64,000 bases of DNA from an uncultured Planctomycetia bacterium (lineage in GTDB: Bacteria > Omnitrophota > Gorgyraeia > 2-02-FULL-51-18), in assembly GCA_964431835.1 (NCBI GenBank), contig CAYSKO010000006.1, forward strand, positions 59,457 to 123,456, written 5' to 3'. A program made the translations under genes and the position numbers. A model generated the notes under the pieces. The model did not search any database. It was given only the letters and a program-made list of their open reading frames with translations, and was not told the origin of the DNA. This document shows, piece by piece, positions 7,156-54,124 of the stretch; within the stretch, counting starts at the first letter, position 1, and each line of letters starts with the position of its first letter.

Positions 7156-7174
7156 GCGGCCATCCTTGCTTTTG

Positions 7175-8815: not shown

Positions 8816-8816
8816 C

Positions 8817-9047
8817 TTAAGCCGCCTTTCCGGCGGGAATGGGATCCCAGCCGCCGGCCGAGAACGGGTGGCAACGTCCGACCCGGGCGGCGGTCAGCGC
8901 CGAGGCGCGGAAGAAACCGTAGGAACCGAACGCTTCCGCCGCGTACCGCGAGCAGGAAGGGTGGAAACGGCAGGCGCGGGGCGCGAGATACCGGAAGAAA
9001 CTGGCCACGAGACGGATACAGACGACCGCAAGACGATTCAGGATCAA
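8817..9047 (-). CDS. yidD: Membrane protein insertion efficiency factor YidD
   Basis: 76 aa; CRFHPSCSRYAAEAFGSYG...HPFSAGGWDP signature. Confidence 0.8.
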   Translation of the reverse strand: MILNRLAVVCIRLVASFFRYLAPRACRFHPSCSRYAAEAFGSYGFFRASALTAARVGRCHPFSAGGWDPIPAGKAA

Positions 9048-9340
9048 AGGGTTTTCCTTCTTTTATTGTCAGCGCGCACGAGTGCGTTTTTCAGCTCGGA
9101 CTTCGCGCTTTCCAAAGACGGCTCCGCCGGAGACGCCGTCACGCGGAAACGGAACACGTGTCCCGTCGGAGCCTCGAGGCCGCGTATCGCCTCGCGCAAG
9201 ACCCGGCGGATACGGTTCCGCTTCGTCGCCAATCGCACCGTTTTTTTGGGGATGGAGATCAAGGGACCGCGGCCGCCCGGTAATCCGGGCGTGTCCGCTC
9301 TTACGAGAGTGACCGCGAGCCAGATCGGCTCTTCGGGCAT
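9044..9340 (-). CDS. rnpA: RNase P protein component
   Basis: 98 aa basic protein in the conserved rpmH-rnpA-yidD-yidC order; KRNRIRRVLREAIR motif. Confidence 0.85.
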   Translation of the reverse strand: MPEEPIWLAVTLVRADTPGLPGGRGPLISIPKKTVRLATKRNRIRRVLREAIRGLEAPTGHVFRFRVTASPAEPSLESAKSELKNALVRADNKRRKTL

Positions 9341-9344
9341 CCGG

Positions 9345-9482
9345 TCAGACGGTCAGCTTCCAGCGGCCCTTTTGACGACGCTTCCTGAGAACGGCGCGAC
9401 CGTCCTTGGACTGCATCTTCTTCCGGAATCCGTGGGTTCTTTTCCGTTTAATATTCGATTTATTGGTAAGGGTTTTTTTCAT
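9345..9482 (-). CDS. rpmH: 50S ribosomal protein L34
   Basis: Translated by hand: [45 protein letters not shown] (45 aa, below the ORF-track cutoff). Confidence 0.9.
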
Positions 9483-9772
9483 GGTATCCCGTTATTAGAA
9501 TCCGAGGATTATAACACAGGCGCGGTTCGAGTCAAGGACGAGGGAAATACTTGTTGCGCTTTGCCTAGGACGGTTGCTATAATTTCTTGAAATTTTTAAG
9601 AAGTTCGTTAAGACGTCACAAATAATAGCCTGTGGATAACTTGTTGATAATTTCCATAGGGCCGTGGTAAAAGCTGTGAACATCGTTTTATTAGTTAAGT
9701 TATTTAATTTCAATAGGTTAGAATATCAATATAAAACTTCTGAAGTGTTTTCCCCAGGCTACCTGTGGATAA
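9483..9772. promoter_or_regulatory. oriC: Candidate oriC / dnaA promoter region: AT-rich, DnaA boxes TGTGGATAA (9631-9639, 9764-9772) and TGTTGATAA (9642-9650), promoter TTGCGC-N18-TATAAT (9554..9583), AT-rich unwinding-element candidate 9675-9745
   Basis: Perfect TTATCCACA-complement boxes seen directly; the strand-orientation switch of flanking genes occurs here. Confidence 0.6.
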
Positions 9773-11153
9773 CCTGACGCATAGAGACGCGGAAACGCTC
9801 TGGGCGCAGGTTGTTTCCTCCCTCGCCAAGGAACTCTCTCCTCACGTTTGCGACCGTTGGCTTCGCCCCATCAAGCCTCTCGAGATCGCCGACGACACTC
9901 TTTTTTTAAGCGTCCCGGACGAATTCTATAAATCCTGGATCGTCGACCATTACGGCGGAATGATGAACGCGGCTTTAAAGGAAGCGGCCGACGCCGGCGC
10001 GTCGCGCTTCGACTTCCGGGTCGACGCCGATTCATCGTTCGCGGTCCCGGTCTCGGCCGCGCCCGGTCTTCCGACACCTTCACCGGTTCCCGCCGGCCCG
10101 AACACCCCGGCGCTTCAGCCGATCTTCGCCGGCGAAGTGATGCTGAACGGGAAGTACACGTTCGAGAACTTCGTCGTGGGCCCCTCGAACCGTTTCGCGC
10201 ACGCGGCTTCCATGGCGGTCGCCGAAAGCCCGGCTAAAGCGTACAACCCGCTTTTCATCTACGGCCCGGTCGGCCTGGGCAAGACCCATCTCATGCAGGC
10301 GATCGGCCAGGAGACGATGCGGAAGTCGTTTCAGACCCGCGTTCTTTATATTACGAGCGAGAAGTTCACGAACCAGCTCATCAACGCGATCAAGACCGGC
10401 ACCACCGTCAAGTTCCGCGAGAAGTATAGGAACGTCGACGTGCTTCTCATCGACGACATCCATTTCATCGCCGGCAAAGAGGCGACGATGGAGGAATTCT
10501 TTCACACGTTCAACGCGCTCTACGATTCGCACAAGCAGATCGTGGTTTCGAGCGACAAGCCCCCGAAGGAAATCAACAACCTCGAGGAGAGACTAATCTC
10601 GCGCTTCGAGTGGGGACTCGTCACGGACATCCAGGCGCCCGACTACGAGACGCGCGCGGCAATTCTCCGGAAAAAAGCGGAAAAAGAGAACCTCTACGTT
10701 CCCGATTCCGTCACGTCGTTCATCGCCGACCGCGTGAAGTCGAATATCCGCGAGCTCGAAGGCGCGTTGATACGTGTGGTCGCCTATTCCAAACTCGTGG
10801 GGAAGGAAATCGACGAGGCGGTCGCGTACGACGTCTTAAAGGACATGATCGTCGAGACGCAGAAAAAAATCACGGTCGATCTCATTCAGCGGCGGGTCGC
10901 GGAATATTTCGAGGTCCGGCCTTCGGACATGACCGCTAAGCGCCGCTCCCGGAACGTCGTTTTTCCAAGGCATTTGGCGATGTATCTTTCGCGCGAGATG
11001 ACCGGGCTTTCCTACCCTGAAATCGGCGAACAATTCGGCGGTCGGGACCACACGACCGTGCTCCATGCGTGCGAGAAAGTAAGGAAGGAAATTAAGAAGG
11101 ATCAGAAGTCTAAATCGCTTGTGGATAAACTCATGACTGAAATTCGCAAATGA
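9765..11153 (+). CDS. dnaA: Chromosomal replication initiator DnaA
   Basis: 462 aa; Walker A GPVGLGKTHL, AAA+ and C-terminal DNA-binding domain. GTG start at 9765 lies inside a DnaA box, so the start is uncertain (CTG 9774 is the alternative). Confidence 0.9.
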   Translation: MDNLTHRDAETLWAQVVSSLAKELSPHVCDRWLRPIKPLEIADDTLFLSVPDEFYKSWIVDHYGGMMNAALKEAADAGASRFDFRVDADSSFAVPVSAAPGLPTPSPVPAGPNTPALQPIFAGEVMLNGKYTFENFVVGPSNRFAHAASMAVAESPAKAYNPLFIYGPVGLGKTHLMQAIGQETMRKSFQTRVLYITSEKFTNQLINAIKTGTTVKFREKYRNVDVLLIDDIHFIAGKEATMEEFFHTFNALYDSHKQIVVSSDKPPKEINNLEERLISRFEWGLVTDIQAPDYETRAAILRKKAEKENLYVPDSVTSFIADRVKSNIRELEGALIRVVAYSKLVGKEIDEAVAYDVLKDMIVETQKKITVDLIQRRVAEYFEVRPSDMTAKRRSRNVVFPRHLAMYLSREMTGLSYPEIGEQFGGRDHTTVLHACEKVRKEIKKDQKSKSLVDKLMTEIRK

Positions 11154-11313
11154 TTCAGACTGTGGATAAGAAAGAGTTTGTCCACAACTTACGGGTCCAT
11201 TTAAACTAGGAAACTGCAGGGGTTATGGACTTAACCCCGGAACTCGAGCGCCTAGTACTAACACTGGTTATGGAAATCTATAAATCAAAATCGAAATAAG
11301 GCGGAGTGGATAA
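11120..11313. promoter_or_regulatory. dnaA-dnaN intergenic DnaA-box cluster: TGTGGATAA 11120-11128 and 11161-11169, TTGTCCACA 11178-11186, AGTGGATAA 11305-11313
   Basis: Seen directly; the last box abuts the dnaN start. Confidence 0.5.
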
Positions 11314-11314
11314 C

Positions 11315-12420
11315 ATGAAAATCGTTACGTCGAAGGACGCATTACTCAAGGGAATCCAAGCGGTGCAGAACGCGGTTAGCACCAAGGCGACCCTTCCGAT
11401 TCTTTCCCACGTCCTTTTGGACGCGAAGAAGGACGCGGTGCGTCTTGTGGCCACCGATCTTGAGATTGGTGTGTCCGTGACGATTGAAGGCGAAGTGGCT
11501 GAAGAAGGAGCGATTACGCTACCGGCAAGAAAGTTCAGCGAAATAGTGAAAGAGCTGCCGTCGCAGTTGCCGATCCACATCGCGATGAAAAAAGCGCAGT
11601 CGGTGAGTATCGAATCCGGAAAAAGTTATTTCAAGTTAAACGGGCTTTCGAAAGAGGATTTCCCACAACTTCCAGAGTTTCCGACGAATTTGAAGGCGAT
11701 CGACGCGGCGAAGCTTCCGCAGAAATTACTAAAACACATGATTCAGCTCACAAGTTTCGCGATGAGTCATGATGAGACGCGTTACGTGTTAAACGGGATC
11801 CTGTTCTCGTTTAAGGAAAAGGCGCTCAAAATGGTGGCCACCGATGGACGCCGTCTTGCGATCATCGAAAAAGCGGTTCCGGAAATGGGACAGTTGCGGC
11901 GCGATGCGATCCTTCCGATGAAGACGATTCAGGAATTAAATAGGAACCTATCGGACACGGGTGATGTGATTTTCTCGTTCAAGGAAAACCAGCTCCAAGT
12001 GAATCTCGGCGCGATCACGATTAGCTCGAGACTCATTGAAGGCGAATATCCGAATTACGAACAGGTTATTCCGAAGAAAACAAAAGAAGAACTGAAAATC
12101 GGAACGCAGGAATTCCTGCAAGCCACGCGCCGCGCGAGTATCCTCACGAACCAGGATTCGCAGTCGATTAAGATTAATATCATCAAAGATAAGATGATTT
12201 TGACCAAGAACACGCCAGAGCTCGGCGAAGTGCGCGAGGAACTCGATGTTGATTATAAAGGTGGGGAACTCGCGATCGGGTTTAACCCCGCGTTCCTCAT
12301 TGATGTTCTCAAAAATCTCGAGGACCCCGACGTGCGTTTCGGATTCATCGATCCCGAGAAACCCGCGGTTATTAAGAGCGGCGAGGATTACATGTACATC
12401 GTCCTCCCGATGCAAGTGGC

Positions 12421-12424
<4 letters not shown>
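11315..12424 (+). CDS. dnaN: DNA polymerase III beta sliding clamp
   Basis: MKIVTSKDALLKGIQAVQNAV with SD AAGGCGGA 10 nt upstream; the track GTG start at 11306 is inside a DnaA-box-like site. Confidence 0.9.
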
Positions 12425-15293
<2,869 letters not shown>

Positions 15294-15309
15294 AGGGTAG
15301 AGAAGAAAA

Positions 15310-17877
15310 ATGGCGGACAAGACCGACAACCAGTACACGCGGAACGAGAAGGTCATCCCGGTTTTCATCGAAAAAGAGATGAAGACCGCGTACCTGAACT
15401 ACGCGATGAGCGTTATCGTCGGCCGCGCGCTGCCCGACGTCCGCGACGGTTTGAAGCCGGTCCACCGCCGTATTCTCTACGCCATGAAGGGCCTCGGCCT
15501 CGATCACAACAAGCCCTACAAGAAATCCGCCAAGATCGTTGGTGAAGTGCTCGGTAAATTCCATCCGCACGGCGACTCCGCCGTTTACGATTCGCTCGTT
15601 CGCATGGTTCAGGATTTCTCGCTGCGCTATCCGCTCGTCGACGGCCAGGGCAACTTCGGCTCGGTCGACGGCGACTCGCCGGCGTCCATGCGTTACACGG
15701 AAGCGCGCCTGGCCGGAATCTCGAACGAGATGCTCCGCGATATCGACAAGGACACCGTCAACTTCGCGCCGAACTACGACGAGTCCGAAGAAGAACCGAC
15801 GCTCCTGCCGTCCGTGCTCCCGGGCCTTCTCTGCAACGGCTCGGCCGGCATTGCGGTCGGCATGGCCACCAACATTCCCCCGCATAATCTAAACGAAGTT
15901 TCCGACGGCATCATCGCGGCGATCGAGAACCCCGAGATCACGCCGAAGGAACTCATGAAATACATCAAGGGTCCCGATTTCCCGACGGGCGCCACGATCT
16001 GCGGCGTCGAAGGCATCAAGTCGGCGTACGAGACGGGCCGCGGCATCCTCAAGATCCGCGCGAAAGCGGCGGTCGAGGAATCGCGCAACGGCCGCCAGGC
16101 GATCGCGATCTCGGAGATCCCGTACCAGGTCAACAAATCGAACATGATTCAGACCATCGCCGATCTCGTGAACGACAAGAAGATCGAAGGCATCTCGGAC
16201 GTCCGAGATGAGTCCGACCGCGAAGGCATGCGTATCGTGATCGAGCTGAAACGCGACGTGAACGCGCAAGTCGTGATGAACCAGCTCTACAAGCACACGC
16301 AGATGCAGACCACTTTCGGCATCATTTTCCTGGCCCTCGTCGACGGCAGCCCGCGGGTTCTGAATCTTAAACAGATCATCGAAGAGTACATCAAGCACCG
16401 CAAGGAAGTGATCCTCCGCCGCACGCGGTTTGATCTCGACAAGGCCCGCGACCGCGCGCACATCGTCGAGGGACTGAAGAAGGCCGTCGACATCCTCGAT
16501 AAGATTATCAAGACCATCCGCGCCTCGAAGAACCCGGCGGAAGCCAAAGCCCAGCTCATCGAGAAGTTCGAGTTTTCGGACCGTCAGGCGCAGGCGATCC
16601 TCGAGATGCAGCTCCAGAAGCTTACCGGCCTTGAGATCCACAAGCTCGAGGAGGAGTTCAAGGAGCTCATGAAGAAGATCGACTTCCTCGAGTCGATCCT
16701 GAAGTCCGAGAAGAAGGTCCTCGAGATCATCAAGGAAGAGCTCGCGAAACTGAAAGCAGACTACGGCGACGAGCGCCGCACCGACATTTCGCGCTCGATG
16801 GACACCGAGCTCAACATCGAAGACCTGATCGCGGACGAGGCGGTCGTCATTACGATTTCGCACCAGGGCTACGTGAAGCGCCTCCCGGTCGGCACGTACC
16901 GCAAGCAGAAGCGCGGCGGCGTGGGCGTAGGCTCCGGCGGCCAGGAAGAGGACTTCACCCAGCAGCTCTTCGTCGCGTCGACGCACGACAACCTGCTTCT
17001 TTTCACGACCAAGGGCAAGGCGTTCGTCATCAAGGTGTACGACATCCCCCAGGCGTCGCGCATCTCGAAGGGCAAGTTTATCGCCAATTTCGTCTCGCTT
17101 TCGCAGGGCGAGAAGGTCACGTCCTACATGCCCGTGAAGAAGTTCGACGAGGGCATCTTCGTCGTCATGGTCACGAAGAACGGCACGATCAAGAAGTGCC
17201 AGCTGACCGATTTCGAGAACGTCCGAAAGAGCGGCATCATCGCGATCGGGCTCGATCCCAAGGACGAGCTCGTCGAGGCCGACCTCACGAACGGCAAGCA
17301 GCAGATCCTCATCGCCACCCGCGAAGGCCAGTGCATCCGCTTCGACGAGGACGACGTGCGCTCGATGGGACGCGCCGCCAGCGGCGTGCGCGGAATCACG
17401 CTCGACGGTAAAGATTACGTGATCGGCATGGAAGTGGTAGACTCGAAGGACGCCACGATCCTGTCCGTCACCGAGAAGGGCTTCGGAAAGCGCTCGATGG
17501 TCGACGAGTACCGGGTCACCGGACGCGGCGGCAAGGGCGTCACGAATATCAAGGTTACCGAGAAGAACGGCGAGGTCGTGGGCTTCAAACTTGTCACCGA
17601 CCACGACGACGTCATGATCATGACCAAAGAAGGCATGGTCGTGCGGTGCTCGGTGAAGGACATCCGCGAAACGGGCCGCGTGGCGCAGGGCGTCCGGGTC
17701 ATCAATTTGAAGAAGGACAACGACAAGGTCGTCGCCGTCGCCGAGGTCGAGCCCGAAGACGAGGCGATGGCGCAAGAGAAGCTGACCGAGGCCGAGAAGG
17801 CCGCAGCGATCGTGGAAGCCGAAGCCGAAAAGGCCGAGAAATCCGCGAAAGCCGACAAAAAGAAGTCGGACAAGTAA
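15310..17877 (+). CDS. gyrA: DNA gyrase subunit A
   Basis: 855 aa; [19 protein letters not shown], active-site region AMRYTEARL, GyrA-box beta-pinwheel repeats, acidic/lysine tail. Confidence 0.95.
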
Positions 17878-42839: not shown

Positions 42840-43073
42840 GTGCGATCGTTTTATTGGAAAGGATCTTTAGGTTTCATGTCTCAGGCGGTTTCTCCCCCCA
42901 AGCTCGGCCGCGAACGGACGGCCGTCACCGGTTTTCCCAATGAGCGCGCCGTGGCCCCGACGGCCTTCGCTGACGGCCGCTACAAATCCGATTACGTCCA
43001 CCCCAACGCAGAAGGTTACCGGAAGATCGCCGAACGCGTCCGCGAATTCCTCGACCGAAAAGGAGCTCTTTGA
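42840..43073 (+). pseudogene. C-terminal remnant of an SGNH/GDSL hydrolase
   Basis: 77-aa ORF ending ...FADGRYKSDYVHPNAEGYRKIAERVREFL (block V DxxHPN of SGNH hydrolases); no GDSL N-terminal block upstream. Confidence 0.4.
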
Positions 43074-43537
43074 AACCCCCGCGCAAGACGGCTTTCCCGA
43101 TCGTCAACGTTTACGAACGCTACGGGAAGATCGTCGTCGTCCCGACTTCCCAAACGCTCGCCGGTTTCTACGTCGACAAGGATCCCGCGAAGCTCTTGAA
43201 AGCCGACTGGAACGAGATCGGGGAGGCGGTGCTCGCGGCGCGTAAACGGTTCGAAGCTGGAGTGCCGGTGCCGGTGTGGACGAAAAAAAGCACGCACCCC
43301 GCGCGCGAGGCGTTCGGTGCGCGCTCCGAAGCCGAATTCCTGAACTACTGCCGGCTCTGCTCGGTGGAATTTACGCCCGAGAAAATTCATGCGATTCCGT
43401 ACCAGAACCGCGGCGCAGACGAGGGTTTCGTGCCCGCCGAAGCCGTCGCGTGCGAAGCCTTCGGCCCCGACGCCGCGGCCGTCGGCGACGCGGTCCGTCG
43501 TGCGCTGTCTCTTAGCGGTAAAGGAAAAGCCTCCTGA
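43070..43537 (+). CDS. Hypothetical protein, 155 aa
   Basis: TTG start with SD AAAAGGAG 5 nt upstream; no known domain. Confidence 0.4.
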   Translation: MKPPRKTAFPIVNVYERYGKIVVVPTSQTLAGFYVDKDPAKLLKADWNEIGEAVLAARKRFEAGVPVPVWTKKSTHPAREAFGARSEAEFLNYCRLCSVEFTPEKIHAIPYQNRGADEGFVPAEAVACEAFGPDAAAVGDAVRRALSLSGKGKAS

Positions 43538-43542
43538 AAAAA

Positions 43543-43766
43543 GAACCGGCCTAAAGACGAAATCCTGCCTCATGCCGTCGGCTTTAAATCCCCGAAAATT
43601 TCGACGGCAAACGGCAGGATTTCGTCTTTAGGCCGGTTCCTTCGTCCCGCATAAGACGAAACCCGAAAGAAAAGTGCGCAAAAAAAGAATCCGCCGTTGC
43701 CGTCGAAATTTTCGGGGATTTAAAGCCGACGGCGCAAGGCGGAGTCTTTTTTTGCGCACTTTCTCC
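43543..43766. repeat. Nested inverted-repeat element: 27-bp perfect IR (43543-43569 / 43613-43639) enclosing a palindromic 37-nt unit (43574-43610); an exact reverse-complement copy of that unit (43697-43733) enclosed by an ~18-20 bp second IR (43665-43688 / 43745-43766)
   Basis: All arms checked base-by-base in the sequence. Confidence 0.6.
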
Positions 43767-43893
43767 GATTCCCCTTGATTTTCATGAGGGAATTTAGTAC
43801 AATAACGTCACTTCAGATCGGAGTCCTTCCGGTCTACTCGTTCCAAGATCCTCCGTTAAGCTTGCTCCGAACATTCACGTTTAGGGGGTGCAC

Positions 43894-44376
43894 ATGCTCA
43901 ACAGACGACGGATATTTCACGTCCTCTTCTTCAGCGCGTTTACTTTGTTCTGCGTCGACGCGTCCGCCAAAGAATACTGGAACGGCAGCGAATGCGTCGC
44001 GTGTCCCGACGGCGCGTTCACCTCGTTCGATCCTCTCAAAAACAGCAGCCCCACGCGTGACTCATCGGGCGGCGGCGGCTCCCGGCCTCTTCCTTCCGCC
44101 GGCCCGACCGATTTCACTCTCAACGGTTCCGCCCGGCTCCCGGACGAATTCGTCCTCGTGCCTCAGGAATCGAGCGTGATGTATTTCGTCGTGGGTCCGG
44201 TCAAGCACGTCGACGCCAAGCAACACCTCGTCGTCGTGGAAAACCGCAGCACGCGTAAGAGGCAAAACATCTTTGTCTTCGACCCGATCATCCACTCCCT
44301 CCACGACCGCAACGTCGTCGAGGTGTGGCTTAAACCCGGCTCCAGCCGGGCGGAGAGGATCCACCGCCTCTCCTAA
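43894..44376 (+). CDS. Secreted cysteine-containing hypothetical protein
   Basis: Signal peptide MLNRRRIFHVLFFSAFTLFCVDASA; SD TAGGGGG. Confidence 0.45.
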   Translation: MLNRRRIFHVLFFSAFTLFCVDASAKEYWNGSECVACPDGAFTSFDPLKNSSPTRDSSGGGGSRPLPSAGPTDFTLNGSARLPDEFVLVPQESSVMYFVVGPVKHVDAKQHLVVVENRSTRKRQNIFVFDPIIHSLHDRNVVEVWLKPGSSRAERIHRLS

Positions 44377-44408
44377 CCGCTCTTCAAAACGTCCCCCCGT
44401 AGGAACCG

Positions 44409-44436
44409 CCCCGGGAGCCCTCCTCCCGGGGTTTTC
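44409..44436 (+). terminator. Rho-independent terminator CCCCGGGAG-ccctc-CTCCCGGGG plus TTTT
   Basis: 9-bp perfect stem followed by a U-tract. Confidence 0.6.
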
Positions 44437-44769
44437 ATTTATCCTCTCAGCCTCTTCTTACGCCCGGAATAATTGTTAAAGCTTAGATAATCGTCTCACT
44501 TATCATATGTTCTTATAATGGGTCAATAGACTCATTAATAGATATATTTATACTATATTCTGGGTTTAAATATAATTATTTCGAACTATATAGATTGTTA
44601 TCTCCACTTTCATTTATTCACAGGTTATTAGAAACTGTGGACAAGTGTAATATGGGCGCCACAAGCGGGATTCAGGGGTTCAAAAGGTATTTGACGAAGA
44701 TGGTCATGTATGATATCATTATGGCTCATTAAAGCTAAGCCTACCAGTCAGGTTTAAAGGGTGCATCCA

Positions 44770-45588
44770 ATGACAGATTCCCAGAAGTTCGACCATCTCG
44801 ATAAGCTCGAGAACCAGTCGATTTTCATCCTTCGCGAGGCCTATAAGAAGTTCAAGAAGCTAGCCATGCTTTGGTCCATCGGAAAGGACTCCAACGTCCT
44901 TCTATGGCTGGCACGGAAAGCCTTCTATGGGTATTGCCCGATCCCGCTCGTTCACATCGACACTTCCTATAAGATCCCCGAAATGATCGAGTTCCGCGAC
45001 CGCTACGCCAAAGAGTGGAACCTGAATCTCATCGTCGGGCAGAACAAGCAGGCGCTCGCCGACGGAATGAACTTCACGCAGGGGCGCATTACGTGCTGCA
45101 CGGCTTTGAAGACCACGGGCCTTCAGCAGATCATGGAACAGTACGATTACAAGGGTCTCATCCTCGGCATTCGCCGGGACGAGGAATCCACACGCGCCAA
45201 GGAGCGTTACTTTTCGCCCCGCGATAAGAACTTCGAGTGGGATTTCAAGGACCAGCCGCCGGAGCTTTGGGATCAGTTTAAGACCAACTTCGACGAGAAC
45301 ACGCACATCCGCATCCATCCGCTTCTCCACTGGACGGAGGTGAACGTCTGGGAATACATCCAGCGTGAACAGATTCCGGTCGTGTCGCTTTATTTCTCGA
45401 AGAACGGCAAGCGCTACCGGAGCCTGGGGTGCGCGCCTTGCACGGCCACGATTGATTCGCAGGCTTCTTCGATCCCCGAGATCATCACCGAGCTCAAGGC
45501 CACGAAAACCTCTGAGCGTGCCGGGCGCGCCCAGGACCAGGAAGACACCTACGCGATGCAGCGCCTCCGCGCCAAAGGATACATGTGA
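44770..45588 (+). CDS. cysD: Sulfate adenylyltransferase subunit 2
   Basis: [19 protein letters not shown]-loop; ATG at 44770 with SD AAAGGG. Confidence 0.9.
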
Positions 45589-46886
45589 TGAACACCGCTC
45601 CCCTGCGCGGCGAGGAGATCGTCGCCGAGACAAACGAAACGCTGAAATTCGTCATGGTCGGCCACGTCGACCACGGCAAATCCACGCTGGTCGGCCGCCT
45701 GCTCCACGAGACCGGCTTCATTCCCGACACCAAGGTCGAACACGTAAAGAAAGTCTGCGATGACCAGGGCAAGGGCTTCGAGTTCGCGTTCCTCCTGGAC
45801 GGCCTCGAGGAAGAGCGCGACCAGGGCATCACGATCGACGTCGCGCAAATGTTCTTCCGGACAAAGAAGCGCAACTACGTCGTCATCGACGCTCCCGGCC
45901 ACAAAGAATTCCTGAAGAACATGATCTCGGGCGCTTCGAACGCGGACGTGGCGTTCCTCCTGATTGACGCCGAAGAGGGTATTCAGGAGCAGACGAAGCG
46001 CCACGCGTACCTCCTTTCGCTTCTGGGCATCCGCCAGATCGCGGTCGTGATGAACAAAATGGACTTGGTCGGCTATTCCGAAGAGGTCTTCAACCGCACG
46101 CGCGACGCGTATCTCGAATACCTTTCGACGATCGGCGTGAAGCCTTACACGTTCATTCCGATCTCGGCCTACCACGGCGACAACGTCGTCAAAAAGAGCG
46201 ACAAGATGCCCTGGTACGCGGGAGGGTCGCTTCTCGAGACGCTCGACGCTTTCGAATCGAAGGACGATCGCTCGAAGCTGCCCTTGCGCCTTCCGGTGCA
46301 GGACGTCTACAAGTTCGACAAGCGCCGCATCATCGCGGGCCGCGTCGAGGCCGGCAGCGTGAAGGTGGGCGACGAACTCGTTTTCCTGCCCTCCGGCAAG
46401 ACCACGAAGGTAAAATCCATCGAGAAATGGAACGCAGCGACGCCCGAGCTCGTGATCGCGGGCGAATCGACGGGCCTGACGATGGAAGAGCAGATTTTCG
46501 TCGAGCGAGGCGACATCGCCTGCAAGAAGAACGAGCAGCAGGCGCTCGTGGCCGACCGCTTCACCGCGAATATCTTCTGGATGGGCAACAAGCACCTCCA
46601 GAAAGGCGGCAAGTACATCCTGAAGCTCGCGACGATGGACATCGAGTGCGTGATCGACTCGATCCCGCGCGTCATCAATTCCTCCACGCTCGAGGAGATC
46701 TCGAAGAACGCCGCCGAGGTCGCCAAGAACGAGGTCGCCGAGATCATCCTCACCACGAAGAAGCCGATCGCCTTCGACACGTTCGACCTGGTCCCCGAGA
46801 CCGGCCGTTTCGTGATCGTGCACGAGCACGACGTGCGCGGCGGCGGCATCATCCACAAACTCGTCGAGCATTACTCGGCAATCTGA
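45588..46886 (+). CDS. cysN: Sulfate adenylyltransferase subunit 1 (GTPase; no APS-kinase domain)
   Basis: [24 protein letters not shown]-motifs; ~433 aa. Confidence 0.9.
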
Positions 46887-46891
46887 TCTCC

Positions 46892-47638
46892 GTGACCCAT
46901 CCCGTCCTAGACCTCGAGAAGGCCAACGCCGAATTAGAAAAAGCGTCCGCCGTCGCGTTCCTTCAGTGGGCGTTCCGCACGTTCACGCCCGGGAAGATCG
47001 CATTCGCCTCGTCGTTCGGCTTGGAAGACGTGGTGGTGATCGATATCGTTCACAAGATCGATCCTTCCGTGCGGTTCTTCACGCTCGACACCGGGCGACT
47101 GAACGAGGAGACCTACGACGTGATGGAGCGCGTGCGCCGGAAGTACGACGTCTCGATCGAGAGCTATTTCCCGGACGCGACGAAGGTCGAGAACTTGGAA
47201 CGCGCGAAGGGTTTTTACTCCTTCCGCGAATCCGTAGAAAACCGCAAGGAGTGCTGCGCGATCCGGAAGATCGAGCCGCTCTCGCGCGCGCTAAAAGGGA
47301 TGGAGGCCTGGATCACGGGGCTTCGCCGCGAGCAGTCGGTGACGCGCACCGAGATCCGGAAGATCGAATCCGACGCGGGCGGGCTCCTCTATAAATTGAA
47401 TCCTCTTGCGGACTGGACGCTCGCGGACGTGTGGGCGTACATCAAGAAGAACGACGTCCCGTACAACGCGCTCGCCGACAAGGGATACCCCTCGATCGGC
47501 TGCTCGCCGTGCACACGCGCGACGGCTCCCGGCGAGGACGTGCGCGCGGGCCGCTGGTGGTGGGAGAGCCCCGAGCACAAGGAGTGCGGGCTCCACAACA
47601 ACCCGAACCACCCCAAGCTTCCGAACGGAAAACATTGA
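46892..47638 (+). CDS. cysH: Phosphoadenylyl-/adenylyl-sulfate reductase (CysH; Cys-cluster motifs suggest the APS-reductase type)
   Basis: GTG start after the cysN stop; KECCAIRK ... GYPSIGCSPCT ... ECGLH. Confidence 0.8.
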   Translation: MTHPVLDLEKANAELEKASAVAFLQWAFRTFTPGKIAFASSFGLEDVVVIDIVHKIDPSVRFFTLDTGRLNEETYDVMERVRRKYDVSIESYFPDATKVENLERAKGFYSFRESVENRKECCAIRKIEPLSRALKGMEAWITGLRREQSVTRTEIRKIESDAGGLLYKLNPLADWTLADVWAYIKKNDVPYNALADKGYPSIGCSPCTRATAPGEDVRAGRWWWESPEHKECGLHNNPNHPKLPNGKH

Positions 47639-48054
47639 TGACCGCTTCGACCGCCACGCTCACGCTGAAGCAAGCCGCCTACGACGCGATGATCGCGCAC
47701 GCGAAAGCCGGCTACCCGAACGAAGCCTGCGGAATTCTCGGGGGCGGCGCGGACACCGGCGAGCGTTTCTATCCGCTCAAGAACGCGGACGAATCGCCGA
47801 TCAGCTATTTCATGGACCCGAAGGAGCAGCTCCGGGTCTTCAAGGCCATGCGCGAGGGCGGCGTCGAGATGCGCGGCATTTTCCACTCGCACGTGACGAG
47901 CGAAGCGTACCCGTCGCAGAAGGACGTGCGCCTTGCGTTCTATCCCGAGGTGAGCTATCTCATCGTGTCGCTTTCGGACATGGAGAAGCCGGTTTTGAGA
48001 TCGTTCCGAATCAACGAGGAGAAGGTCAGCGAGGAGGAGATCCGAATTGTCTAA
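47638..48054 (+). CDS. mec: JAMM/MPN+ metalloprotease (Mec-like)
   Basis: 138 aa; NEACGILGG ... HSHVTSEAYPSQKD (JAMM motif ExnHxHx7Sx2D); ATGA overlap with cysH. Confidence 0.75.
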   Translation: MTASTATLTLKQAAYDAMIAHAKAGYPNEACGILGGGADTGERFYPLKNADESPISYFMDPKEQLRVFKAMREGGVEMRGIFHSHVTSEAYPSQKDVRLAFYPEVSYLIVSLSDMEKPVLRSFRINEEKVSEEEIRIV

Positions 48055-49183
48055 CCAAGCCGAACTCATCAAGATCACGCTGAACGGCAAGCCGAACGAG
48101 ATCCAGGGCGGCACCACGGTCTCGGCGCTCCTTGCGAAATGGAAGATCCGGCCCGAGCTCGTTACGGTCGAGATCAACGAGAACATCCTGCAGAAACTAG
48201 AATACGAAGAGACCGCGATCAAAGAAGGCGACAAGGTCGAGTTCGTGTTCTACATGGGCGGCGGCGCGCCGTACGAGTCGATCCTCGACTTCGTCGGAAA
48301 CACGCCCCTCGTGAAGCTCCAGAAGGTCGTCGAAAAGGGGAGCGCCACCGTTTACGCGAAGCTCGAGATGTTCAATCCGGGCGGCAGCGTGAAGGACCGC
48401 ATCGCGCTCAACATGATCGACGCGGCCGAGAAGAAGGGCCTCCTCAAGCCGGGTTCTGTCATCGTCGAGCCGACGAGCGGGAACACGGGCATTGGCCTAG
48501 CTATCGTCGGAGCCGTCAAAGGCTACAAAGTCATTCTCACGATGCCGGAAGGCATGAGCCAGGAACGCATTCAGATCGTCCAGAGCTTCGGCGCGGAGGT
48601 GGTTCTTACGCCCGCGAAGGAAGGCATGATCGGCGCCGTCGAAAAGGCGCGCGAGATCGTCGCCACGAAGAAGGACGCGTTCATGCCACAGCAGTTCATG
48701 AATCCGGACAACCCGGCGATGCACCGGAAGACCACGGCGAAAGAAATCCTGAAGGAGCTCGACCAGCTCGACGCGTTCGTCGCGGGCGTCGGCACCGGCG
48801 GGACGATCACCGGGGTCGGCGAGGTGCTGAAGAAACACGACCCGAAGATCCGCGTGATCGGCGTCGAGCCTAAAACTTCGGCGGTCCTTTCGGGTGGCCG
48901 CCCCGGGCCGCACATGATTCAGGGTATCGGCGCGGGTTTCGTTCCGGACGTCCTGAACCGCCAGGTGATCGACGAGGTCCACACCGTCGACGACCAGGAA
49001 GCGTACCAGATGGCTAAGCGGCTCTCGCGCGAGGAAGGCATTTTCGCTGGGCTGTCGTGCGGAGCAGCCTGCTCGGTCGCGGTGAAGGTCGCGAAGACTT
49101 TGGGCGCCGGCAAGACGGTGGTCGTGATTTTCCCCGATTCGGGCGAGCGGTACCTCAGCATCGAACCGTTTTTTAACATTTAA
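48047..49183 (+). CDS. cysM: In-frame fusion: ThiS-like sulfur-carrier domain (ends ...VEFVFYMGGG) + cysteine synthase CysM/CysK PLP domain
   Basis: TTG start with SD GAGGAGGAG; N-terminal 72 aa ITLNGKPNEIQGGTTVSALLAK...EGDKVEFVFYMGGG is ThiS-like; the remainder NTPLVKL...KLEMFNPGGSVKDRIA...TSGNTGIGLA is a PLP cysteine synthase. Confidence 0.75.
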   Translation: MSNQAELIKITLNGKPNEIQGGTTVSALLAKWKIRPELVTVEINENILQKLEYEETAIKEGDKVEFVFYMGGGAPYESILDFVGNTPLVKLQKVVEKGSATVYAKLEMFNPGGSVKDRIALNMIDAAEKKGLLKPGSVIVEPTSGNTGIGLAIVGAVKGYKVILTMPEGMSQERIQIVQSFGAEVVLTPAKEGMIGAVEKAREIVATKKDAFMPQQFMNPDNPAMHRKTTAKEILKELDQLDAFVAGVGTGGTITGVGEVLKKHDPKIRVIGVEPKTSAVLSGGRPGPHMIQGIGAGFVPDVLNRQVIDEVHTVDDQEAYQMAKRLSREEGIFAGLSCGAACSVAVKVAKTLGAGKTVVVIFPDSGERYLSIEPFFNI

Positions 49184-49194
49184 GGGACGCGCGA

Positions 49195-50457
49195 ATGAGT
49201 TACGTGAAAGGCTTACGCTGCAGGGAATGCCAACGCGAATATCCTGCGGCGGCGCTCTACGTCTGCGAGTTCTGTTTCGGCTCGCTCGAAGTGGATTACG
49301 ACTACGACAAGATCAAATCGAACATCTCGCGCGAGACGATCGAACGCGGTCCGAAGTCGATCTGGCGCTACCGCGACCTCCTGCCGATCGAAGGCGAGCC
49401 AACCGTCGGCTTCCACGCGGGCTTCACGCCGCTCTTCAAGGCCGACAACCTCGCGCGCGTCCTGGGTGTCCGCGAAGTGTGGGTCAAGGACGACTCGGTC
49501 TGCCATCCGACGCTCTCTTTCAAGGACCGCGTGGTGGCGGTCGCTCTCACGCGCGCCAAAGAACTTGGCTTTAAAACAGTCGCGTGCGCTTCCACCGGGA
49601 ATCTCGCAGGTTCGGTGAGCGCGCAGGCCGCCTGGGCCGGCCTCAACCGCTTCATCTTCATCCCACACGACTTGGAGCTCGGGAAAGTCGTGGGCTCGCT
49701 CACGTACGCACCGAACCTCATCTCGGTGGAAGGTAACTACGACGACGTAAACCGCCTTTGCGCGGAGATCGCCGCGAAGTACCGTTGGGCCTTCGTGAAC
49801 GTGAATATCCGCCCGTATTACGCGGAAGGTTCGAAGACCTACGGCTATGAGATCGCCGAACAGCTCGGCTGGAAGACGCCGCGCCACGTGGTCGTACCGG
49901 TGGCATCCGGCTCCCTCCTCGTGAAGATCTGGAAGGCGTTTAAGGAATTCAAGAAGCTCGGCCTCATCGATTCCGTGGATTCGAAGATCCACGGCGCGCA
50001 GGCCGAGGGCTGCTCGCCGGTCGCTGCCGCCTGGCGGGACAAGAGCGAGATCATAAAACCCGTGAAACCCAAGACGATCGCCAAGTCGCTCGCAATCGGG
50101 AATCCGGCCGACGGCATCTACGCACTCGACGCTATGAAGGAATCGGGGGGTTCCGCGGAGACCGCGACCGACCAGGAGATCATCGACGCGATCAAGCTTT
50201 TAGCGTCTACCGAAGGCATCTTCACCGAGACCGCCGGCGGCGTTACGATGGCGTGCGCGAAGAAGCTCGTCGAAAAAGGCGTCGTCAAGAAAGACGAGTC
50301 GATGGTGATTTGCATCACCGGCAACGGACTCAAGACCCAGGAAGCCATCACCGACCACATCGGCAAACCGTACAAGATCAAACCGAGTCTGGATTCGTTC
50401 GAGCAGAACCTCCGGAACGAATCGAAAATAAAGGAGGACGTATGGGCGTCAAAGTAA
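49195..50457 (+). CDS. Threonine-synthase-family PLP enzyme (ThrC-like)
   Basis: 420 aa; N-terminal CxxC...CxxC zinc-ribbon, PLP-lysine region HPTLSFKDR. Confidence 0.8.
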
Positions 50458-50960
50458 GGATTCCGACTCCACTTCAGAAACTGACGAACAACCAGAGCGA
50501 GGTGCAGTGCGAGGCCTCCGACGTGAACCAGCTCCTGAGCGAGCTCGAGAAGACCTATCCCGGCATCAAAGAGCGCCTCTGCGACACCGAGGGCAAGTTG
50601 CGCCGCTTCGTGAACGTGTACGTGAACGAAGAGGACATTCGCTTTCTGCAGGGCCAGGAGACGGCGCTCAAGACGGGCGACGACATTTCGATCATCCCGG
50701 CGATCGCCGGTGGTGCCGAGACCTCGAAAAAACGCGTCACGCTCGTTTTTCCGCCCGATCAGATCAAAGAACCGGTCGTTTTCACGATGGCCAAGAAGTA
50801 CGACGTGATGCCGAACATCCGAAAGGCCCGCGTCACCGAGACCGTCGGCGAGATGACCCTCGAGCTCGAGGGTGCCGAAAAGAACCTGGTCGACGGTATC
50901 AAGTACCTGGAATCGCGCGGGATCAAGGTCGAGCCCGTGACCGGGGACAGCGCGCGCTGA
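50442..50960 (+). CDS. MoaD/ThiS-like sulfur carrier (ends ...IIPAIAGG) fused to a C-terminal NIL domain
   Basis: Perfect SD AAGGAGG; start overlaps the last 16 nt of the ThrC-like gene; the extension [33 protein letters not shown]...MTLELEGAE...[12 protein letters not shown] matches the NIL domain pattern. Confidence 0.65.
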
Positions 50961-51192
50961 AACGCGTCTTCGGCGTTCTCGTCCGCGCGGTCCTTTACGC
51001 GGCCGCGTACGCCGCCTTTCCGGCGTGGGCGTTCTTCCGCGTTCGCGCCGAAGTCGAAAGCGCTTTCCGCTCGCACGCGGTAGCGCTTCCGCACGAGCCG
51101 TTCGCAGCCGTCTCCGGCGCCGCGGCCGCCTGCTTCGCGATTTCGATTTCCGTCGTCGCCCTGTCGTTCTTGAAAAAAAGGAGCGTGCCCGT

Positions 51193-51381
51193 ATGAAGAA
51201 ATCCGCTTTCGTCGCCTTGTTCATCCTGGGTTCCCTCGTCGCGCCCGCGTTCCAGAGCGCCGCGTCCGCCGACCCGCGCCTCGATAAGGTCCTCGCCAAT
51301 CAGGAACAGATCCTGAAGGAGCTCGAGGAGATCAAAAGGGAGCTCGAAATCGTGAAAGTCCGGGCCACCTTAAGGGGCTAA
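51193..51381 (+). CDS. Small secreted coiled-coil protein (62 aa)
   Basis: SD AAAGGAG; signal peptide MKKSAFVALFILGSLVAPAFQSAASA. Confidence 0.35.
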   Translation: MKKSAFVALFILGSLVAPAFQSAASADPRLDKVLANQEQILKELEEIKRELEIVKVRATLRG

Positions 51382-51384
51382 AAA

Positions 51385-51837
51385 GTGAAGTTCTCGACCC
51401 GCACCCTCTACGGACTCCGCGCCGTGCTCGTCCTGGCCAATCGCTTCGGCGAGGGCTCGCTCTCCGTGTCGCAGATCGCGCGCAAGGAAAGCCTCTCGAC
51501 GGCGTATCTCGAGCAGATCCTGAACGCGCTCAAGAAAAAGAGCCTCGTCAAGAGCGTGCGCGGCCCTCAAGGGGGCTATGTGCTCACGAAGAAACCTTCC
51601 GAGATTTCCCTGAAGACCCTCTTCTACGCGCTTGAGGAGGGCGCCGAAGCGGGATCCAACGGCAAGGCTCACGGCCCCGACGGCGACGAAGTGGCCATCG
51701 GGAACCGTATTTTCTGGATGAAACTCCAGGATTCGATCGATGCCGGGCTCGGCGCGACCACCTTAAAAGACCTCATCGACGAAGCCCGCCGCGTGAAGAA
51801 AACCAAGTCCTCAGGCTCCCCCAATTTCCATATCTAA
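51385..51837 (+). CDS. Rrf2-family transcriptional regulator (IscR/CymR-like)
   Basis: 150 aa; MKFSTRTLYGLRAVLVLA...VSQIARKESLSTAYLEQILNALKKKSLVKSVRGPQGGYVL. Confidence 0.8.
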   Translation: MKFSTRTLYGLRAVLVLANRFGEGSLSVSQIARKESLSTAYLEQILNALKKKSLVKSVRGPQGGYVLTKKPSEISLKTLFYALEEGAEAGSNGKAHGPDGDEVAIGNRIFWMKLQDSIDAGLGATTLKDLIDEARRVKKTKSSGSPNFHI

Positions 51838-51974
51838 AACCGCTCGGCACGCCCTCCCGTTTTTTCGCTTTCCTCGAAAGCCCATGCTATAATGATCGGA
51901 CTTTTAAAGCCGCTCCCTCTCTGGGCGAGCGGATATTTTATCTTCTAACATTATATGTAATTCCTTATGTTAGA

Positions 51975-52556
51975 ATGAGTTATGAGGATATGCTGACCAA
52001 ACAGAACGCACGGCAGGAACTGCGAGCGCGGCTCTCCGCCCAAGACCCGACCGACCGGGCGCGGCGAAGCCTGCTCATCCAACGGAAGCTCTTTTACTTG
52101 GAGACGTTCCGGAAGGCGCGCTGCGTGCTTTTCTTCGCTTCCCTGCCCGGCGAGGTGGACACGGCCTCGATGATCGACGCGGCGATCGAGAGCGGTAAGC
52201 GCGTGCTGGTTCCGCTCACGGATCTCGCGGCTCGGCGGCTCGATCTTTTCGAGATACGCGACCGTTCGGAGTTGAAAAAAGGCGCGACACTCGGAATTCC
52301 CGAACCCGACCCCGCGTCTGCGCGGCGCGCCTCGGCGTCGGAAGTGGAATTCGCGGTCGTCCCGGGTCTCGGCTTCGACGCGGACAGGAACCGCATCGGC
52401 CGCGGCGCGGGCTTGTACGACCGGTTTCTCACGTCACTCGCGCCAGGGACGCCCAAAGTGGCGATCGCGTTCGCGTGCCAGATCCTGCCGAGTGTGCCGG
52501 TGGAAGAGTTCGACGTGAAAGTGGACCTCATCTTAACCGAAGAAGGACAAGTATGA
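51975..52556 (+). CDS. 5-formyltetrahydrofolate cyclo-ligase
   Basis: 193 aa; VLVPLTDL...VVPGLGFDADRNRIGRGAGLYDRFL. Confidence 0.8.
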   Translation: MSYEDMLTKQNARQELRARLSAQDPTDRARRSLLIQRKLFYLETFRKARCVLFFASLPGEVDTASMIDAAIESGKRVLVPLTDLAARRLDLFEIRDRSELKKGATLGIPEPDPASARRASASEVEFAVVPGLGFDADRNRIGRGAGLYDRFLTSLAPGTPKVAIAFACQILPSVPVEEFDVKVDLILTEEGQV

Positions 52557-54124
52557 ACCTCACGATTCTCGTTATCTATCTCGTCGGCAGCCTCTTTTTC
52601 GGCGCGGTCGCGTTCGCGGCCGGCTGGGTCGTGCGGAAGCGCGTGGCCGAACGGCTCATCCGCACCGCCGAATCCAAAGCGCGCGAGATCCTCGTCGCCG
52701 CCAAACGCGAGTCCGAAGAGACGCTGAAGCGCTCCGACAAAGACGCCAAACAGCTCGTCTTCCGCGCGCAGAGCGAGTTCGATTCGAAGACGGCCCAGCG
52801 CATGCGGGACTTGGAGAACCGCGAGAAGGTCCTCTCGCACAAGGAAGAGACGACCCGCGACAGCGAACGGGGGATCGAGAAAAAGGAGCGCGAAGCCGCG
52901 TTCCGGCTCCAGGAAGCGGAGACGGTCGAGAAGACGCTCGACGAGAAGAACCGCTCGATCGACAAGCTCCTCGACGCGCAGCGCACCGCGCTCGCGGCGA
53001 TCGCCCAGCTCGACGTCGAAGCGGCCAAGCGCGAATATCTCCGCCGCCTCGAAATCGACCTGCGGGGGGACGCGTCGAAGCTCATCCGCCAAAGCGAGAC
53101 CGAAGCCCGCGAGGAAGCCGACAAGAAGGCGAAGTGGATCCTCTCCCTGGCGATCCAGCGCTGCGCGGCCCAGCACTCGATGGAATCCACCGCGACATTG
53201 GTCCAGCTCCCGAGCGACGAAATGAAAGGCCGCATCATCGGCAAGGACGGCCGCAACATCAAGACCTTCGAGACGCTCACCGGCGTCGACGTGGTTATCG
53301 ACGAAACCCCCGGCACGGTCACGCTCTCGGCCTTCGACGGCGTCCGCCGCGAGGTCGCGCGCCAGGCGCTCGTCGAGCTTCTGCGCGACGGCCGCATCCA
53401 GCCTGCGCGCATTGAGGAAGTCGTCCAGAAGACGAAGCGCTCCATGGAGAACACTTTGAAGGAAGAAGGCGAGAAAGCCATGGCCGACGCGAACGTGCCG
53501 ACCATGCACCCCGAGCTCGTGAAGCTCCTCGGTCGTCTGCGCTTCCGCTCGAGTTACGGGCAGAACGTGCTCGACCACTCGGTGGAAACCGCCTATCTCA
53601 TGAACGTCATCGCCGGCGAGATGAAACTCGACCCGCTCCTGGCGCGCCGCGCTGGGCTCCTGCACGACATCGGCAAGGCCGTTTCGTCCGACGTCGAAGG
53701 TCCGCACGCCTTGATCGGCGGCGAACTCGCGCGCCGCTACGGCGAGCACCCGGACGTGATTCACGGAATCGAAGCGCACCACGAGGACATCGAGATGAAG
53801 TCGCCGTGGCCCATGCTCGTCCAGGCCGCCGACGCCGTTTCGGCCGCGCGTCCCGGCGCCCGCCGCGAGAGCCTCGAAAATTACGTCAAGCGCCTGAAGC
53901 AATTGGAAGAGATCGCCGACAAGCATCCGGGCGTCGAGAAGTCGTACGCGATCCAGGGCGGCCGCGAGGTCCGCGTGGTCGTTCGCCCCGAGCGGGTGCC
54001 TGAAGATTCGCTCCCGGCGCTCGCGCGCGAGGTCGCGAAGAAGATCGAAGAAACGCTCGATTTCCCCGGGCAGATCAAAGTCATCGTGATCCGCGAGACG
54101 CGGGTCGAAGACGCCGCGAAGTAA
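52553..54124 (+). CDS. rny: Ribonuclease Y
   Basis: Start MNLTILVIYLVG (N-terminal TM), coiled-coil, KH domain (GRIIGKDGRNIKTFE), HD domain (HSVETAYLM...LLHDIGK); ATGA overlap with the upstream gene. Confidence 0.9.
   Translation: MNLTILVIYLVGSLFFGAVAFAAGWVVRKRVAERLIRTAESKAREILVAAKRESEETLKRSDKDAKQLVFRAQSEFDSKTAQRMRDLENREKVLSHKEETTRDSERGIEKKEREAAFRLQEAETVEKTLDEKNRSIDKLLDAQRTALAAIAQLDVEAAKREYLRRLEIDLRGDASKLIRQSETEAREEADKKAKWILSLAIQRCAAQHSMESTATLVQLPSDEMKGRIIGKDGRNIKTFETLTGVDVVIDETPGTVTLSAFDGVRREVARQALVELLRDGRIQPARIEEVVQKTKRSMENTLKEEGEKAMADANVPTMHPELVKLLGRLRFRSSYGQNVLDHSVETAYLMNVIAGEMKLDPLLARRAGLLHDIGKAVSSDVEGPHALIGGELARRYGEHPDVIHGIEAHHEDIEMKSPWPMLVQAADAVSAARPGARRESLENYVKRLKQLEEIADKHPGVEKSYAIQGGREVRVVVRPERVPEDSLPALAREVAKKIEETLDFPGQIKVIVIRETRVEDAAK

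Follow-up and report, generated by a model that had tools for sequence, protein, structure and literature searches.

The 64-kb stretch of DNA analysed here (the window: contig CAYSKO010000006.1 of assembly GCA_964431835.1, from an uncultured bacterium) carries on its + strand, at 48047-49183, an open reading frame (ORF) for one protein of 378 aa, in which a ThiS-type sulfur-carrier domain continues in a single frame into a CysK-type cysteine synthase. The public annotation of this gene reads 'cysteine synthase A'. Its start codon is a TTG located 7 nt past the Shine-Dalgarno sequence GAGGAGGAG. The carrier domain (aa 1-73, 48047-48265, + strand) was recognised by Pfam as ThiS (PF02597, aa 10-73, 52 bits, cut-off 22.5) and passed the NCBIfam equivalog model thiS (TIGR01683, 65 bits, cut-off 37.45) over positions 1-64 of the 64 in the model. 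The pyridoxal phosphate (PLP) domain, which resembles O-acetylserine sulfhydrylase A (OASS-A) and comprises aa 74-378 and the stop codon (48266-49183, + strand), matched PALP over aa 80-364 with 269 bits and passed the cysK equivalog model TIGR01139 with 439 bits (cut-off 351). The ORF and both profile libraries bear out the original prediction, made by a model from the letters of the sequence, of an in-frame fusion with a complete PLP domain and of an N-terminal domain found by ThiS profile searches. Of its assignment of the enzyme to CysM or CysK only the second name stands, as the cysM models reached 295-300 bits on the PLP domain, under their cut-offs of 394-413.

The top 60 matches of the PLP domain in the PDB were CysK/OASS-A proteins, with 50-55 % identity to solved CysK enzymes, and a Foldseek comparison gave TMt values of 0.79-0.81 to the CysK of Staphylococcus aureus and Mycobacterium tuberculosis, the top matches again being OASS-A. 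K116 in the PLP-lysine motif SVKDR, TSGNTG at 143-148 and GVGTGGT (GTGGT at 249-253) were invariant in an alignment of the fused homologues. Equivalog model, catalytic motifs and fold are therefore those of CysK; unlike CysK, the protein bears an N-terminal sulfur-carrier domain and is encoded in an operon with a JAMM protease and a second carrier instead of being paired with CysE, which was not found among the window ORFs tested. The ThiS fold closes with ...VEFVFYMGGG, the glycines G71-G73 being encoded at 48257-48265, and the chain proceeds directly, with no linker, into APYESILDFVGNTPL, a normal CysK N-terminus. The residues right after the glycines are APYESILDFVGNTPLVKL, and the sequence spanning the junction is ..FVFYMGGGAPYESILDFVGNTPLVK. 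An AlphaFold2 model of the fusion had a mean predicted local distance difference test score (pLDDT) of 79.5, with both domains modelled confidently and the ThiS domain at about 85-91; values below 50 occurred solely at residues 1-3, 72-75 and 294-298. The low score at 72-75 is consistent with an exposed and flexible junction.

Immediately upstream, as had been predicted, lies the gene of a JAMM/MPN+ metalloprotease of 138 aa (47638-48054, + strand; Prok-JAB PF14464, 93 bits), similar to Mec, HcyD and QbsD and the predicted processor of both carriers of the operon. Its catalytic motif is complete (E29 and H83-S-H85-x7-S93-x2-D96), and the nearest solved structures are 2kks (E-value 6e-36) and PfJAMM1, 5ld9. 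An ATGA-type coupling proposed for this gene was not found: it overlaps the preceding cysH by 1 nt (TGATG) and the fusion gene by 8 nt. P0146, a protein of 446 aa in a representative protein library, joins a JAMM domain (EAC...HSHTHSQAYPSATD) at its N-terminus to CysK. This JAMM::CysK protein is a different fusion inside the same functional trio and a further link between JAMM and CysK.

The fusion is genuine and no assembly error. An independent Logan assembly of run SRR6448212 was 100 % identical over 9,560 nt (window positions 43704-53263), and a search of 5.8 billion proteins yielded 32 full-length clusters and one truncated cluster of the same ThiS and PALP architecture, 72-85 % identical to the query and originating from NCBI, JGI, ENA and Logan. 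Among 80 species-representative genomes of GTDB five were fused (L004-L008). The relatives are mostly labelled Candidatus Omnitrophota; the Saganbacteria/WOR-1 genomes L024 and L025 are fused as well. A sequencing or assembly frameshift, with thiS and cysK truly separate, would be suggested by the close relatives in which the two are separate overlapping genes, so that one indel would mimic a fusion. However, the chance of this is negligible: beside the identical second assembly, the clusters from four sources and the five GTDB representatives differ in the sequence and length of the linker, and compared with the split loci the junction has lost a stop and a start codon and changed its glycine codons, not a single base. 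In a library of representatives at 50 % identity, the best 150 matches contained only two ThiS::CysK proteins, P0124 and P0232, the latter a fragment. A seemingly full-length fusion, P0259, was rejected as a chimera with an unrelated N-terminus. The fusion is thus rare but recurring. In the literature searched, no ThiS/CysO-cysteine synthase fusion was found described. The architecture had been called unusual in the original prediction, and it is so in being rare; it is not unique, and the MoaD-MoaE fusions cut by JAMM proteases are a direct precedent. Orthologous fusions in related genomes, a check proposed with the original prediction, were found among the protein clusters and among the species representatives.

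All fused clusters except the most divergent, P0032, contain the exact string FVFYMGGG, and when 29 fused proteins, P0032 among them, were aligned, G71-G73 did not vary. Past the glycines follow 3-11 variable residues, the first being A, S, G or T, and then the CysK motif ILDLIGNTP. The retention of the glycines next to variable residues, in 33 clusters at 72-85 % identity, indicates that the fusion is under selection.

Many relatives whose CysK is 80-88 % identical possess a separate thiS of 75 aa in the gene order cysD-cysN-cysH-JAMM-thiS-cysK. In L002 the carrier ends ...FVFYMGGGER, its stop codon overlapping the ATG of cysK (ATGA). The tails beyond the glycines in the split loci are ER, DLHS, SYGKI, S, SL, KS, I, MV, AWA and one of 27 residues; among these loci only the ThiS of L048 stops exactly at GGG. 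Of the free ThiS clusters that retain the motif, the nearest 118 were all tailed past GGG (by one residue in 40 clusters, by two in 41 and by 47 in the longest). Translation of this carrier thus always yields a precursor, and the fusion forms the far end of a continuum in which the partner enzyme itself may serve as the pro-part. Of more general interest is that an entire family of carriers is produced in precursor form, and that the genomic reason is a simple one. In the split loci the glycine codons GGC-GGA-GGA/GGG form a GGAGG Shine-Dalgarno sequence for cysK, 4-10 nt ahead of its ATG; the tails are short, with one to five residues, because their codons serve as the spacer between this ribosome-binding site and the start codon. 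The double use of the ThiS GGG codons as cysK Shine-Dalgarno sequence was seen at 7990-8004 of L002 and at the junctions of L009-L023. As far as we found, this origin of pro-carrier tails has not been described earlier. Fused genes mostly have GGC GGC GGC and have lost both the thiS stop and the cysK start.

Neighbour-joining trees of the ThiS, CysK, JAMM and threonine synthase (ThrC)-like sequences from 25 loci placed the fused genomes in at least three groups among split ones (the window with L004 and L005; L006 with L008; L007), with the Saganbacteria pair separate again. Fitch parsimony over 100 bootstraps gave mostly four to five changes between the fused and the split state and never fewer than two, counts that rest on simple trees of closely related sequences and are not firm as to the exact number of events. 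The tree positions indicate that the Saganbacteria fusion arose independently, and the pattern of fusion and fission fits a junction that would be nearly neutral to both.

Sulfur carriers of the ThiS, MoaD and CysO type need a free terminal carboxylate for adenylation by an E1-type enzyme and for thiocarboxylate formation. In the fusion the glycines are followed in frame by 305 residues, and a free end would require proteolysis. As an internal GGG cannot be adenylated, the bond G73-A74 must be cut if the ThiS domain carries sulfur; for a ThiS domain acting as sulfur carrier this rules out the action in cis without cleavage that had been offered as an alternative. The JAMM protein is the obvious cutter because it is catalytically intact and its gene, which shows translational coupling to the fusion gene, occurs in all fused Omnitrophota-like loci (syntenic in all six) and, within ~7 kb, in 37 of the 43 loci with tailed carriers. 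The Mec protease of M. tuberculosis hydrolyses the peptide bond between the terminal glycine of CysO and cysteine, and therefore the fusion precursor would be another substrate of the type carrier-GG-X. Hence we consider it likely that the JAMM protease cleaves after G73 and frees ThiS and CysK for a thiocarboxylate-dependent cysteine synthesis. The release of the buried GG by JAMM, as originally predicted, is supported by the 118 tailed carriers, the invariant glycines, the synteny of the JAMM gene and the buried GG of the second carrier. The predicted cleavage site G73/A74 (48263-48268, + strand) is proposed from the invariant GGG, the variable residues after it, the low pLDDT and the ThiS of L048 that ends at GGG. 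After a cut at this site ThiS would end ..EFVFYMGGG and CysK would begin with APYESILDFVGNTPLVK at A74.

In such a pathway the 40.5-kDa polypeptide ThiS(1-73)-CysK(74-378) would be translated as a self-contained precursor of a protein-thiocarboxylate cysteine synthase. The co-transcribed JAMM protease would hydrolyse it at G73-A74 to an 8.1-kDa ThiS with a Gly-Gly-Gly-COOH end and a 32.4-kDa CysK. An E1-type adenylyltransferase encoded elsewhere in the genome would adenylate the freed ThiS, which would become ThiS-COSH with sulfur from sulfate, reduced via the upstream CysDN and adenosine 5'-phosphosulfate (APS) reductase. CysK would form aminoacrylate from O-acetyl- or O-phosphoserine, and the thiocarboxylate tail of ThiS would attack the aminoacrylate. 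Among the Foldseek matches were solved CysK structures whose active site holds the C-terminal peptide of a partner protein (3tbh, 4jbn, 5xoq); CysK sites accept C-terminal tails, and therefore a docking of the ThiS tail is plausible. The same JAMM protease may then hydrolyse the ThiS-Cys adduct, as Mec does in M. tuberculosis, to yield cysteine and recycled ThiS. It would recognise the carrier and the GG, seemingly indifferent to the residues beyond. With a protease indifferent past GGG, appendages such as tails, NIL, E1 and CysK would be free of cost, and fusion and fission can therefore recur; C-terminal appendages would be selectively neutral, which would explain the tails, the NIL, E1 and CysK fusions and their repeated gain and loss.

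Several points weigh against this reading. The architecture, its conservation, the tails and the synteny are observed, while the cleavage of the fusion by JAMM, its exact site, the sulfur chemistry and the acceptor substrate are inferred. The PLP domain is an ordinary-looking CysK, as similar to sulfide-using enzymes as stated above, and could work without a carrier. A six-frame scan of the 64-kb window for E1 motifs revealed no E1/ThiF/MoeZ gene, nor did tblastn (E ≤ 1) when five E1 sequences of related loci served as queries; the sole match was that of the MoaD domain of a MoaD::E1 fusion to 50442-50717. Sulfite reductase, rhodanese, CysE and SerB were not found among the window ORFs tested with Pfam, and since E1, sulfite reductase and CysE were not found, the pathway is incomplete as far as seen in the window. 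In six of the 43 loci with tailed carriers no JAMM gene was present in the available stretch, these loci being short. An in-frame ATG at codon 70, with no Shine-Dalgarno sequence before it, could in principle start a free CysK, and the loose count of fusion events given above belongs to the same side.

On these grounds the fusion might never be cleaved, CysK using free sulfide as an O-acetylserine sulfhydrylase, ThiS being a non-catalytic appendage for solubility, docking or regulation and JAMM serving only the second carrier, MoaD::NIL. The canonical CysK scores, the identity of 50-55 % to sulfide-using enzymes, the missing E1 gene and the inferred nature of the cleavage would suit this explanation. 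We regard it as unlikely, however, as the fused forms keep GGG and the ThiS core invariant next to variable residues, sister lineages have the same ThiS as a free protein, always beside JAMM and cysK, a decaying appendage would not keep 72-85 % identity over 33 clusters, and the junction is predicted to be flexible, not packed. Two products could also arise without proteolysis if ribosomes started at M70 (MGGGAPYES...) and yielded free CysK, the full-length protein being a minor or inert product after a recent loss of the thiS stop. The product of this start would have 309 aa, the size of free CysK homologues. However, a Shine-Dalgarno sequence is missing 5-12 nt from this ATG, the GGAGG of the split loci lies downstream of it and has been lost in most fused genes, and M70 is kept as a ThiS residue in the split forms; moreover, the cell would be left without a functional ThiS, yet the domain is conserved. 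A start at M70 as source of CysK is thus very unlikely.

The pathway proposed for JAMM-released ThiS and CysK has its closest counterpart in the CysO-CysM-Mec-MoeZ system of M. tuberculosis, with which the locus shares a β-grasp carrier ending in GG, a PLP enzyme for β-replacement and an adjacent JAMM protease. In the CysO pathway the carrier donates sulfur to the PLP enzyme from its GG-thiocarboxylate; for the present locus this donation is a prediction. Unlike in M. tuberculosis, the fused carrier is of the ThiS type, and the CysO-like protein of the operon is MoaD::NIL; the PLP enzyme is of the CysK type and no orthologue of the O-phosphoserine-specific CysM; carrier and enzyme are one polypeptide, and the E1 gene was not found in the window. 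With a ThiS-type carrier and a CysK-type enzyme, the CysO/CysM/Mec system is therefore an analogue and not an orthologue. For the fused state there are precedents in molybdopterin synthesis. M. tuberculosis MoaX has activity only after a cut between G82 and S83, the MoaD-MoaE fusion DR2607 of Deinococcus radiodurans is cut by the JAMM protein DR0402, and HvJAMM1 cuts a linear SAMP1-MoaE fusion to active subunits. Like these proteins, ThiS::CysK is encoded by one ORF in which the carrier precedes its partner enzyme and GG marks the junction. It differs in its partner, a PLP-dependent cysteine synthase of amino acid biosynthesis and not MoaE of molybdopterin synthase, and in the translational coupling of its gene to that of the protease. 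In work of the Begley laboratory on HcyS/HcyD (Wolinella) and QbsE/QbsD (Pseudomonas), the residues after GG are reportedly removed by the JAMM protein before activation by E1. The MetO/Mec pair of Streptomyces, in which the pro-carrier is matured by JAMM, is treated in the GapMind preprint. The free ThiS homologues with their tails of 1-47 aa resemble these pro-carriers; unlike in HcyS, QbsE and MetO, the extension in the fusion is an enzyme of 305 residues. The fusion is best filed as a putative JAMM-processed precursor of carrier and enzyme, here in cysteine biosynthesis; the mechanism would follow established precedents.

The ThiS domain could instead be a carrier of the thiamin pathway, or a ubiquitin-like modifier with JAMM as its deconjugase, the fusion to CysK being incidental. 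The passed thiS equivalog is shared with the ThiS of thiamin synthesis, the free homologues are named 'thiamine biosynthesis protein ThiS' in their sources (JGI annotation), and the best NCBIfam match of the JAMM protein was desampylase, under its cut-off. However, no thiF, thiG, thiH, E2- or E3-like genes were found near the fusion, the homologues are tailed past GG unlike the ThiS of the thiamin pathway, and the sulfate-assimilation context cysD-cysN-cysH-JAMM-thiS-cysK-thrC-like-moaD::NIL-rrf2 is conserved across several phyla. Iyer et al. (2006) described operons combining ThiS/MoaD and JAB with cysteine synthase or sulfate-assimilation genes, and classes 4c-4e in their rows match this neighbourhood. 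Their survey of prokaryotic ubiquitin-like proteins lists fusions of ThiS with ThiG, ThiF, MoaE and sulfite reductase; cysteine synthase and NIL are not among the fusion partners. A role in thiamin synthesis or protein modification is accordingly highly improbable.

What is known of thiocarboxylate-dependent cysteine synthesis comes mainly from M. tuberculosis, where CysO acts with the O-phosphoserine-specific CysM. The loci described here pair a ThiS-type carrier with an ordinary CysK in uncultured lineages of the PVC group and related ones, mostly Omnitrophota, and in addition Saganbacteria, Endomicrobia and Nitrospirota. The labels 'cysteine synthase A', 'thiamine biosynthesis protein ThiS' and 'molybdopterin synthase sulfur carrier subunit' would hide a route with two carriers and one protease to cysteine and probably homocysteine. 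The fusion is also a handy natural substrate for studies on the specificity of bacterial JAMM/Mec proteases. A doubtful extension of the proposal would make the maturation of carriers by JAMM a regulated checkpoint, in which the state of the pro-domain (CysK, NIL or, in other phyla, E1) gates the cleavage, e.g., NIL with methionine or S-adenosylmethionine bound, or CysK with or without substrate. If so, the protease step would control the flux to cysteine and homocysteine, post-translationally and in stoichiometric fashion, a metabolic analogue of the processing of ubiquitin precursors.

The second carrier, MoaD::NIL (50442-50960), is located in the same string of genes, in line with the original prediction of a common operon. 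Its CysO-like MoaD domain (aa 1-91, 50442-50714, + strand; ThiS PF02597, 64 bits) ends in SIIPAIAGG, and the nearest PDB entry was CysO of M. tuberculosis (3dwg_C, E-value 8.5e-21), with an alignment reaching the terminal GG. This GG is buried before a NIL domain of 81 aa and the stop codon (50715-50960, + strand; NIL PF09383, 59.5 bits). The search with MoaD::NIL gave 4,707 matches at E ≤ 1e-10, the top 120 all with both domains. MoaD::NIL is thus abundant in metagenomes, where it goes only by the names 'MoaD/ThiS family protein' or 'molybdopterin synthase sulfur carrier subunit'. All Omnitrophota-like loci, and L048 as well, have kept the fusion to NIL. Elsewhere the CysO-like carrier stops at its GG (L057), has a tail of 1-12 residues, is followed by a separate NIL gene or continues into an entire E1 adenylyltransferase domain, as in the Endomicrobia L027, L029 and L030 and the Methylomirabilota L055 and L071. 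Between thiS::cysK and the second carrier gene, which it overlaps by 16 nt, a threonine synthase-like PLP enzyme is encoded (49195-50457, + strand; PALP, 231 bits; thrC models matched), with an N-terminal zinc ribbon, CxxC...CxxC, and threonine synthases as nearest PDB entries. The pair of ThrC-like enzyme and MoaD::NIL resembles the pair MetM/MetO. According to the GapMind preprint, the recently described MetM/MetO route leads from O-phosphohomoserine to homocysteine, and Mec is listed as needed for MetO maturation. By this similarity the ThrC-like enzyme is probably a thiocarboxylate-dependent homocysteine synthase of the MetM type using the MoaD carrier, which annotation would name threonine synthase; the same JAMM protease would free the CysO-like MoaD from NIL, and MoaD would then serve this enzyme.

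Upstream of the JAMM gene, the operon encodes the enzymes of sulfate activation and reduction on the + strand: cysD, the small subunit of sulfate adenylyltransferase (44770-45588; PAPS_reduct, 152 bits; NF003587 CysD, 375 bits, cut-off 195), cysN, its GTPase subunit without an APS kinase domain (45588-46886; TIGR02034, 386 bits, cut-off 336), and a cysH-type reductase for APS or 3'-phosphoadenosine 5'-phosphosulfate (46892-47638; NF002537, 297 bits, and TIGR02055 APS_reductase, 270.5 bits, both over cut-offs). A promoter-like site upstream of cysD, TTGACG-17-TATCAT with TG (44691-44719, + strand), matches the consensus and by this match appears to be the operon start; a terminator-like hairpin of the gene before cysD lies at 44408-44432. 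From this site the operon appears to comprise cysD, cysN, cysH, JAMM, thiS::cysK, the thrC-like gene and moaD::NIL, and no terminator-like site was found on the + strand between the cysD and moaD::NIL genes. Downstream, a regulator of the Rrf2 family (51385-51837, + strand; Rrf2 PF02082, 99.7 bits) is syntenic in the relatives; it is CymR-like, with 99 bits to the CymR model, under the cut-off of 195. Between moaD::NIL and this regulator is a small conserved ORF of 62 aa (51193-51381, + strand), whose membership in the system is uncertain. It is a gene call in L001 and has 64 aa at the same place in L002 and L003; a hydrophobic N-terminus is followed by a coiled-coil-like stretch (LANQEQILKELEEIKRELEIVK), and the ORF had no Pfam match.

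The composition of the operon varies among relatives. L002 and L003 have an ABC transporter ATPase gene between cysH and JAMM (6550-7389) and, separating cysK from the thrC-like gene (8937-10786), genes of a permease and an NMT1/SsuA-like binding protein. As ATPase, permease and binding protein are absent from the operon in the window, the gap between cysK and the thrC-like gene is just 11 nt here. The Omnitrophota-like clusters had no E1-type gene within about 7 kb. The Nitrospirota/Leptospirillia clusters L048, L051, L053, L056, L060 and L063 have two E1-type genes in the order thiS-cysK-E1-thrC-like-moaD-NIL-JAMM-E1, perhaps one per carrier.

A riboswitch upstream of cysD was considered and rejected: an Rfam search at E ≤ 0.1 over 43000-52500 gave only sub-threshold microRNA-like matches, which were taken as chance or structure-only similarity. 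Among them, the hairpin-rich intergenic region 43538-43757 had matches resembling microRNA precursors on both strands, the best with 39 bits against a gathering score of 100; the region may be an inverted repeat or a structured RNA, or the matches may be due to chance. Pfam searches with 20 further ORFs of the window yielded only housekeeping functions (yidC, dnaA, gyrB, gyrA, H+-PPase, RecQ, DsbD, YmdB, Dxs and TatC). Of these, yidC (- strand), dnaA, gyrB and gyrA are clustered at 7175-17877, and therefore the window probably adjoins the chromosomal origin of replication.

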